64,000 nucleotides of DNA. It comes from a virus. Lineage: Duplodnaviria; Caudoviricetes. The stretch covers positions 1 to 64,000 of the IMG/VR virus record IMGVR_UViG_3300025723_000017; one strand, 5' to 3'. Positions 3,452 to 34,094 of this stretch are shown in pieces. Every line of letters starts with the position of its first letter. Position 1 is the first letter of the stretch. The translations under genes were made by a program, and so were the position numbers. The notes beneath the pieces are model-generated. The model made no database searches. It was not told where the DNA came from and saw only the letters and a program-made list of their open reading frames with translations.

Positions 3452-3873
3452 AGTTGTTGTTGTATAACTGCTATTTTTTCACGTACTGCTTCAAAATTTA
3501 TTGTTGACCACAATCCCGGATGTAATGGTTTAGGCCAAGTGCCTGAATCAATCCAAGCATATCCCAAATGCTCATTATTGAGTGTAGGTTTGAATTCATC
3601 AAACACCACACAAAAAAATGTATTGTAAACAAATCCATTATCAGCTGATGTAAATTTCTCTAACGGCATAAGTTTAATATAATCTGGCATGCCACCTAAT
3701 TCTTCTTCACATTCTCGAACCATTGCAGCCATAATGCTTTCCCCTGATTCGATTTTACCTCCCGCCAAACCCCATGAGTCAGGATGCTTAGAATCATTCC
3801 TAAGCAAGTATAGATAACGATTTGTTGTTTGACTATAAAACCAAACGCCCACTGCTGAAATTGTATTATTCAT
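3436..3873 (-). CDS. Nudix hydrolase
   Basis: Nudix box GGKIESGESIMAAMVRECEEELG. Start placed at 3873 because of the TAATG overlap with the upstream stop. Confidence 0.9.
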   Translation of the reverse strand: MNNTISAVGVWFYSQTTNRYLYLLRNDSKHPDSWGLAGGKIESGESIMAAMVRECEEELGGMPDYIKLMPLEKFTSADNGFVYNTFFCVVFDEFKPTLNNEHLGYAWIDSGTWPKPLHPGLWSTINFEAVREKIAVIQQQLQTSQ

Positions 3874-32620: not shown

Positions 32621-32645
32621 AGCCCTATTAGTAGGGCTTTTTGTT
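32621..32645 (+). terminator. Intrinsic terminator
   Basis: AGCCCTA-ttag-TAGGGCT followed by a T run. Confidence 0.75.
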
Positions 32646-32672
32646 GACATTTAATTCAAATGCAAGTATAAT
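32644..32672 (+). promoter_or_regulatory. Consensus sigma70 early promoter
   Basis: TTGACA-17-TATAAT, perfect consensus. Confidence 0.9.
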
Positions 32673-32891: not shown

Positions 32892-32920
32892 TTGATTAAA
32901 AAATATTTTGAAATTATAAT
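32892..32920 (+). promoter_or_regulatory. Sigma70-type promoter
   Basis: TTGATT-17-TATAAT. Confidence 0.7.
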
Positions 32921-32950
32921 ATTACTTTACAAATAGTTAGGAGCTATAGT

Positions 32951-33961
32951 ATGTCGAGTGTACTAATCAAAAAAGGTATTTATCGTGGTATGTCTATTGA
33001 AAATCAAACTCTACCTTTAGTTAGAGGATATACTGCTGGAGCAAAAAATAATTATATTACTGTTAACAGTAATGGATTGTTTGGCAATGCGTTTGATATT
33101 GTCCGTGTCAAAGTTGACAGTACAGATGACTTTGTCATCATTCCCACAGAATCAGAATTAATTTCAACTACCTCATCTATTGCAGTTGAATCTGATGATG
33201 AGATTATGGATCGAATTGAACAGAGATTTGAAATCCTACAACAAATGACTCGAGCAATCATTTCAGGTGATGTACGTGCAATGATTGTAACTGGCCCGCC
33301 TGGTGTGGGTAAAAGTTATGGTGTAGAATATGAATTAGAAAAATATGGTTTATTTGAACATATTTCTAGACGAAAAATTAAGTATGAAGTTATCAAAGGT
33401 GCCATGTCTCCCATTGGATTGTATTGTACTTTGTATAAAAATTCTGATCCAAATAATGTATTGGTATTCGATGATTGCGATAGTGTATTCCAGGACGAAT
33501 TGGCGTTGAACATTCTCAAAGCTGCATTAGATTCAGGCAAAAAACGTAGAATTCATTGGAATTCAGATTCATCTATGCTACGTCGAGAAGGTGTGCCAGA
33601 CTGTTTTGATTTTAAAGGTGGTGCTATTTTTATCACTAACTTAAAATTTGATCACTTAAAATCTAAACGTATGCAGGATCACTTGGAAGCATTACAATCA
33701 CGCTGTCACTTTTTGGATTTGACACTGGATACAATGCGTGATAAATTTTTACGCATCAAACAGATTTTTCGCCAAGGGCAATTATTCAATGATTATGAAC
33801 TTACTAAAGAAACTGGTGAAGAGATCTTGGCATTTATGGATGCTAACAAGAATCAGTTACGTGAAATGAGTTTGCGTATGGCTTTGAAATTAGCCGACTT
33901 AACCAAAGTATCTGAAACAAACTGGAAAGCATTAGCAGTTTCAACTTGTATGAAAATTTAG
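32951..33961 (+). CDS. AAA+/P-loop ATPase
   Basis: GPPGVGKS Walker A, LVFDDCD Walker B, IFITN sensor 1, ALQSRC arginine finger. Confidence 0.85.
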   Translation: MSSVLIKKGIYRGMSIENQTLPLVRGYTAGAKNNYITVNSNGLFGNAFDIVRVKVDSTDDFVIIPTESELISTTSSIAVESDDEIMDRIEQRFEILQQMTRAIISGDVRAMIVTGPPGVGKSYGVEYELEKYGLFEHISRRKIKYEVIKGAMSPIGLYCTLYKNSDPNNVLVFDDCDSVFQDELALNILKAALDSGKKRRIHWNSDSSMLRREGVPDCFDFKGGAIFITNLKFDHLKSKRMQDHLEALQSRCHFLDLTLDTMRDKFLRIKQIFRQGQLFNDYELTKETGEEILAFMDANKNQLREMSLRMALKLADLTKVSETNWKALAVSTCMKI

Positions 33962-33969
33962 TCATGTTT

Positions 33970-34060
33970 TATAAATATTGCTAAGTATTTGTATAGCTCC
34001 TGCATCGTCCTAACTACGATGCATTTTACCAGGCACCTGTAAAATGGTGCCTGTTTTTTT
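33970..34060 (+). ncRNA. Candidate structured regulatory RNA (3' UTR or late sRNA) ending in an intrinsic terminator
   Basis: TATAAATA at 33970-33977; hairpin TGCATCGT-cctaact-ACGATGCA; terminator CAGGCACC..GGTGCCTG-T7; complementary to 32928-32948. Confidence 0.5.
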
Positions 34061-34094
34061 GACTTTGCAGAGTCAAATATGTTACTATATCTGT

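Follow-up and report, generated by a model that had tools for sequence, protein, structure and literature searches.

Post-transcriptional control by phage-encoded RNAs is poorly charted. In phage T4, the genes e, soc and 49 carry local hairpins that sequester their ribosome-binding sites (RBS) and that are relieved by late transcripts. In Staphylococcus aureus, the 5' and 3' untranslated regions (UTRs) of the icaR mRNA pair with each other (PMC3868564), and in Vibrio cholerae OppZ and CarZ are autoregulatory small RNAs (sRNAs) derived from 3' UTRs (PMC7398697). Pairing between 5' and 3' UTRs is also known to control mRNA decay (PMC5737220), and in Bacillus subtilis anti-Shine-Dalgarno (anti-SD) 8-mers located hundreds of nucleotides downstream repress expression (PMC12697547). 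Surveys of virulent phages list putative UTR-derived RNAs but assign them no functions (PMC10914365).

The locus described here lies in the first 64 kb (the window) of a 154-kb IMG/VR contig from a T4-like jumbo phage, and its features are collected in Table 1. The ATPase ORF (32951-33961) has, besides its full-length family match, a weak match to AAA_16; by tblastn, its annotated counterpart is nrdC.10 of Acinetobacter phage Acj9 and its nearest cultured relatives are those of PA5oct-type phages (41-47% identity). A relative of solved structure was looked for and none was found, and the literature on NrdC.10 yielded nothing useful. The ATPase gene sits in a variable region, and the gene 3' of it encodes the UvsW helicase, with best matches in Phosso, Atu_ph07 and PA5oct-like phages. 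Since a promoter and an intrinsic terminator bracket the ATPase gene, it forms a self-contained early transcription unit. The TATAAT box stands at an equal distance from the SD in nearly all homologues and is followed by about 20 nt, AGGAGC and the start codon. With transcription predicted to start near 32927, the 21-mer TACAAATAGTTAGGAGCTATA (32928-32948) is essentially the entire 5' UTR, and the conserved pairing segment of this leader is AGGAGCTATA (32939-32948). At the other end of the unit, the T-run of the terminator merges into TTGAC, the -35 box of the early uvsW promoter that comes next (34059-34088). Fusions of this type are seen in the window at 32621-32672 and 34054-34088, and the layout recurs at homologous loci; the promoter at 32644-32672, that of a 58-aa ORF, agrees with the consensus throughout (12 of 12 positions).

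Table 1. Features of the ATPase transcription unit and of its 3' module (positions in the window).
Feature	Coordinates	Strand	Basis or remarks
Sigma-70-type early promoter of the ATPase unit, TTGATT-17-TATAAT	32892..32920	+	predicted start near 32927
5' UTR (leader)	32927..32950	+	SD AGGAGC at 32939-32944; about 23 nt predicted
NrdC.10-like AAA/P-loop ATPase gene, 336 aa	32951..33961	+	phrog_1250 full-length, E=1.4e-87
Extra hairpin, TATAAATA (33970-33977) paired with TATTTGTA (33986-33993)	33966..33997	+	fold; absent from homologues
Whole 3' module	33992..34060	+	covariance model R1, 76 bits, E=4e-17
Anti-SD 1, TATAGCTCCT, directly 5' of hairpin 1, conserved seed	33992..34001	+	GCTCCTG invariant in 41/41 aligned elements
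Hairpin 1, 8 bp, loop CCUAACU (34009-34015)	34001..34023	+	fold; stem covariation
U-rich single-stranded linker UUUUAC, conserved	34024..34029	+	alignment A1 (41-element consensus AUUUUAC)
Intrinsic terminator, 8-bp stem then T7	34030..34060	+	hairpin 34030-34053; fold and terminator prediction

An earlier note on this DNA had claimed three exact complements of the leader downstream of the gene. All the strings were found in place: the leader 21-mer itself, TATTTGTA at 33986-33993, TATAGCTCCT at 33992-34001 and TCCTAACTA at 34008-34016. The same is true of TATAAATA at 33970-33977, and the terminator announced 3' of the element is borne out by a hairpin followed by seven T. TCCTAACTA had been described as displayed in the loop of an 8-bp hairpin; the hairpin exists, but its loop has 7 nt, so that only seven of the nine complementary bases are looped. 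This second anti-SD, carried by the loop of hairpin 1, is specific to the window, as is the second pairing segment of the leader, TAGTTAGGA (32934-32942). The three matches cannot form simultaneously: TATTTGTA breaks colinearity with the SD pairing, and AGGA is contested by the window's two anti-SD copies. The intergenic region folds into four hairpins (z=-5.45), including hairpin 1 and the terminator.

Six 8-mer positions of the leader are matched, and six or more were reached in 2 of 5000 dinucleotide shuffles. We counted, for 92 crude gene calls in the window, the leader bases covered by complements of at least 7 nt within 110 nt 3' of the stop codon: the count is 21 for the ATPase gene, 9 for the next best gene and 0 for 80 genes, and the ATPase gene is the only one of the 92 with such complementarity between leader and 3' end. 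Over the 154-kb contig its own leader ranks second among 2483 candidate start sites for pairing to the 15-nt seed. Taken by itself, the RNAduplex energy of the window's pairing does not reach significance (-16.5 vs -14.1 +/- 2.6 kcal/mol). Among the SD variants of this phage GGAGC is common, being present at 30 of the 96 GGAG-type sites of the contig, and its C cannot pair with 16S rRNA. A RegB-like nuclease was considered as an explanation of GGAGC and rejected, PF10715 giving sub-threshold matches only. On the minus strand of the contig, outside the window at 96-115 kb, a cluster of small genes has common leaders of the form AGTAAACAAACAGGAGC..ATG.

No DNA-level relative was found among the 50,697 deposited phage records searched, so that homologues could be reached only through protein. 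A protein-guided search of IMG/VR gave 160 loci (64-79% amino-acid identity) from uncultured T4-like jumbo phages of 320-345 kb; these reduce to 104 unique combinations of leader and 3' region, 98 of which have a recognisable terminator. In 94 of these 98 unique loci the first terminator after the ATPase gene is closely preceded by a complement of the SD-containing leader, so that they show the hallmark of icaR-type control, a 3' UTR motif whose complement is the SD of its own mRNA. Only the SD pairing between AGGAGCTATA and TATAGCTCCT is conserved among the three matches; that of TATTTGTA is neither conserved nor colinear. The module keeps its 3' position despite the insertion of one ORF (200-700 nt) after the ATPase gene: in the loci with such an ORF (L002, L003, L007, L012, L015, L021, L031, L036, L071 and L140) it still ends the unit, before the first terminator. 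The anti-SD is absent from the L131-type clade and from L093. In this long-branch clade (L131, L145, L151, L155, L156, L159) and in L093 a hairpin and a terminator are kept after the ATPase gene and GCTCC is lost; these loci would serve as natural controls.

The alignment of 41 elements is made of an invariant single-stranded GCTCCTG, a hairpin, the U-rich linker AUUUUAC and a terminator, with compensatory changes in 12 of the 16 structural base pairs of the module and an invariant seed. The covariance model R1 detects the element in 78 of 80 loci, the two misses being contigs cut at the end, and in 46 of 51 further loci. On the 154-kb contig, the module of Table 1 is its only full-length significant match, and the element is single-copy in five genomes (317-345 kb, 89-100% complete by CheckV) as well as in this contig. 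Rfam holds no such family (best score 21 bits against a cut-off of 50); the RNA family is new, and the proposed mechanism is of a known kind. Three architectures are found, with the seed beside the hairpin, with the seed in a loop of 15-19 nt, or with two copies, one of them looped (L076), and in local folds of all three the anti-SD is unpaired. The second, loop-borne anti-SD of the window fits this pattern, yet it is unique, occurring in 1 of 75 standard loci, and the loop kissing put forward by the earlier note does not extend to a general feature.

A TAAGTA box lies 4-7 nt 5' of the anti-SD in the window (33981-33986) and in many loci with a longer 3' UTR (e.g. L004, L014, L023, L036); a processing site or a weak promoter are possibilities for it. 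In L061 the module occurs twice (2523-2586 and 3531-3593), flanking an inserted 283-aa gene, and a remnant of the C-terminal coding end of the ATPase stands duplicated 5' of the second copy; the module with its terminator therefore seems to be a recombination joint for gene insertion. In a distant cultured relative, Pseudomonas phage PA5oct (L082), the leader GGAGTAGCAT (850-866) has a complement, interrupted by a 2-nt bulge, in the 3' arm of the hairpin ATGCTAC..TCC (2020-2050), which directly follows the homologous gene and has no terminator there; this match may reflect the same principle or chance.

The two sides of the pairing change together. When GGAG was kept fixed and the other leader bases were shuffled, the mean z was -2.05, with p<0.05 in 56% of loci. 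Among 13 classes of elements, own pairs reach -184.9 kcal/mol against -159.0 +/- 5.9 for swapped pairs (P=3e-5, class permutation). In the standard clade, 95% of loci have a pair at leader position L-1 (3 pair types), 95% at L+1 (3 pair types) and 89% at L+2 (2 pair types); slid registers give 0-0.3 for most. The bases after GGAGC in the leader and those before GCTCC in the element are, respectively, TATA and TATA in this window, TA(A) and (T)TA in the L058 clade, ATTC and GAAT in L094, GAA and TTC in L091, AA and TT in L076 (two copies), and (N)TAGAC and GTCTA in a large clade, where the variable N forms a bulge. The ATPase tree places these matched variants on separate branches, which implies six or more coordinated changes. 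The invariant core GGAGC/GCTCC shows by itself no covariation, and L+1 is mismatched in some clades (A.A in the L041 group, G.A in L002). The typical duplex has only 8 bp, the range being 8-13 bp. Complementarity under selection, as in systems of the icaR type, is thus seen here as covariation. The covariation between leader and 3' element that the earlier note had named as a check was found in homologous loci (P=3e-5; at least six coordinated changes), and its central claim, a 3' element pairing with the leader and SD of the upstream ATPase gene, stands as a pairing conserved and covarying in about 100 unique loci and kept in 94 of 98; in the window, the number of matched leader 8-mer positions is rarely equalled by shuffled sequences (2 of 5000).

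On this comparative evidence, we consider it real that this early phage mRNA ends in an anti-SD module which is conserved and co-evolves with the leader. Our preferred reading, to which we give a probability of about 0.62, is that of a 3'-end riboregulator which would block the RBS of its own gene and most likely would act also in trans. Directly supported are the conservation of the module, the accessibility of its seed in local folds, its covariation with its own leader and its presence as a single copy per genome. The last 70 nt or so of the early ATPase transcript would constitute a riboregulatory module in which an exposed anti-SD seed is followed by a hairpin, a U-rich linker and an intrinsic terminator, and the seed would form 8-13 bp with the SD and neighbouring leader positions of the mRNA species to which it belongs. 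The pairing of 16S rRNA with AGGAG involves only about 5 bp, so that a seed duplex of 8-13 bp, once formed, should exclude the 30S subunit from the message; ATPase synthesis would in this way be capped or fed back on, and the module is probably a translational brake on its own gene. Pairing in vivo, translational repression, processing, the involvement of Hfq and action in trans are steps of this model that we infer.

Most likely the module also acts in trans, either as a released 3'UTR-derived sRNA comparable to OppZ or as the tail of an intact mRNA, and a purely intramolecular fold-back comparable to that of icaR is almost as likely as a trans-capable module. In the strict form of the fold-back, which we hold to be a serious possibility short of an even chance, the anti-SD would work only within the full-length mRNA, with no released RNA and no other targets, and would close the 5' and 3' ends once transcription is complete, limiting the rounds of translation per transcript. 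The own leader is indeed the one partner that covaries everywhere, no conserved internal promoter is present and synonymous sites vary freely in the last 20 codons; long-range repression by anti-SDs is an experimental fact (PMC12697547). Both ends are paired in whole-transcript folds, the SD being paired with the 3' GCTCC at p ~1 for 12 of the 14 divergent loci folded; as the SD finds partners in silico even when the transcript is truncated, whole-transcript folding is weak evidence. Against a strict fold-back, hairpin 1 and the U-rich linker are kept by selection and are not obviously needed by a bare anti-SD in cis, the leader of a CsgF-like gene pairs better than the own leader in three related genomes (G003, G002 and G005), and the number of predicted targets is enriched in G003. 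The earlier note had likened such a fold-back to that of type I toxin mRNAs: the fold-back survives as one of two live mechanisms and the toxin analogy does not. A hok-like toxin mRNA, with an ORF for a small toxic peptide and an antisense RNA antitoxin, was rejected, the gene encoding a 336-aa P-loop ATPase.

A fuller version of action in trans, which we regard as tentative and rather doubtful, would see in the 3' UTR of this early mRNA an sRNA with a small regulon, in which feedback on the ATPase is combined with the holding down, by RBS blocking, of a late CsgF-like gene and perhaps a few others. In G003, which is 99% complete, 15 leaders pair at -15 kcal/mol or below, where seeds with permuted flanks give 2.65 +/- 2.6 (P<0.005); for the 154-kb contig to which the window belongs (G000), the enrichment of targets in trans is not significant (P ~0.2). 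Target ranks are biased by false internal start codons; with this bias, the CsgF-like gene, about 40 kb away, is the best seed match in G003 (rank 1 of 1192; 10+6 nt, -27.9 kcal/mol), and its orthologue has rank 5 of 863 in G005, rank 20 of 1214 in G002, with the 10-nt exact match CCAGGAGCTA, and a weak match in G004. As an orthologue cluster it comes second of 360 (Fisher p=3.1e-5, about 0.01 after correction); the top cluster of this comparative ranking was set aside, as it resembles false internal start codons. These pairing data make the late CsgF-like gene a probable second target, reached in trans. The gene itself (PF10614, E=4e-15) encodes a protein with a signal-peptide-like N-terminus and is found at G003:42112-42558, G002:55091, G005:179949, G004:188465 and in L265; a (T/A)TAAATA motif resembling a late promoter precedes its start codon by about 25 nt. 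A conserved 92-aa membrane-like protein, with the SD AGGAGCT(A/G), is encoded at G002:53860, G003:51864, G004:195164 and G005:186936; its leader is possibly a further target, or possibly a leader conserved by descent.

As for the origin of a separate RNA, the two marks of OppZ/CarZ-type sRNAs, the intrinsic terminator of the parental mRNA and an exposed seed, are present, and the hairpin, the U-rich linker and the long U-tail are, by analogy, arranged like those of Hfq-dependent sRNAs. A search for a conserved promoter or processing site that could yield a separate sRNA gave none, and synonymous variation at the end of the coding sequence, where an embedded promoter was looked for, is not reduced; codons were numbered from the stop partly out of register, which makes this a weak test. 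Given the absence of an excess in the own contig and of an internal promoter signal, action in trans is a supported lead and not a result.

The 5'-3' pairing could instead act on stability, shielding the leader or the ends from nucleases as in hbs of B. subtilis, or creating a processing site. The complementarity predicted by this reading is identical; however, the paired bases are those of the SD itself, so that protection and ribosome exclusion coincide, and no RegB-like nuclease cutting at the SD was found in these genomes, which leaves the reading improbable.

The late promoter invoked by the earlier note fared worse. It would give rise to an independent sRNA of about 80 nt, transcribed from TATAAATA at 33970-33977 and shutting off the early ATPase gene late in infection. 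TATAAATA does match the T4 late promoter consensus 15 nt 5' of the anti-SD, and related genomes do have late-type motifs 5' of the CsgF-like gene; but TATAAATA is absent from every homologous locus, where the anti-SD in many cases starts 3-6 nt past the stop codon, it has just three copies in the window, without enrichment, and in the RNA fold it is buried in the window-specific hairpin. A conserved TATAAATA upstream of the RNA start, as expected of a T4-type late transcript, is therefore missing, and we consider this origin very improbable.

Least probable is that no RNA-RNA feature exists, the complementarity being due to chance, to a DNA inverted repeat of a mobile cassette or to the RBS of a minus-strand gene: chance is excluded by the shuffles, the class permutation and the comparison of 92 genes; a cassette repeat would agree with a repeat bracketing a gene in a variable region and with the duplication of the module around the inserted gene of L061, but is unlikely, one arm lying inside the transcription unit, 3' of the promoter and not at the end of the cassette, and the G-U pairs and bulges fitting RNA pairing instead; and a minus-strand RBS, suggested by the motif reading AGGAGC on that strand, is rejected because a start codon with an ORF of at least 30 aa follows the minus-strand GGAGC in only 18 of 93 loci, no conserved minus-strand feature having been found at the element.

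Since its partner and its seed are defined and compensatory variants exist in nature, the element is directly testable by a simple reporter. If the preferred reading, a 3'-end riboregulator of its own gene, is true, the logic of bacterial 5'-3' UTR pairing or of autoregulatory 3'UTR-derived sRNAs would be used also by large lytic phages in dosing an early protein, and a new family of structured RNAs, outside Rfam, would be added. The module would moreover offer a natural case of a distal anti-SD that is selected for, where in bacteria such sequences are selected against. Should the small regulon be real, it would amount to RNA-based temporal control in a lytic phage by means of a new and widely conserved RNA family.

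Compared with the systems described so far, the phage module shares with icaR an anti-SD in the 3' UTR complementary to the SD in the 5' UTR of the same mRNA and a proposed effect on initiation, and differs from it in belonging to an early gene of a virulent jumbo phage, in its shorter duplex (8-13 bp) and in its compact arrangement of hairpin, linker and terminator. With OppZ and CarZ it has in common the use of the parental mRNA's terminator, an organization like that of Hfq-dependent sRNAs and its own transcript as the pairing partner, in the phage a predicted one; OppZ, however, targets an internal cistron, while the phage element targets the first and usually only SD, and OppZ and CarZ are characterized by RNase E processing, Hfq binding and effects on Rho, whereas the phage element is known here from its sequence. 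As in hok/sok, the two ends of one mRNA would pair, 3' with 5', and keep it untranslated, but the phage locus lacks a small toxic ORF and an antisense antitoxin and gives no sign of activating 3' trimming. Like the e, soc and 49 genes of T4, it would be a case of a T4-type phage controlling an SD by RNA structure, with the difference that the T4 hairpins are local and that the partner is here 1.0-1.7 kb away, at the 3' end of the transcript. The long-range anti-SDs of B. subtilis resemble it in being pyrimidine-rich 8-mers that lie far downstream of the ribosome-binding site they pair with; there, distal anti-SDs are selected against (PMC12697547), whereas the phage one is conserved and covaries with its partner.
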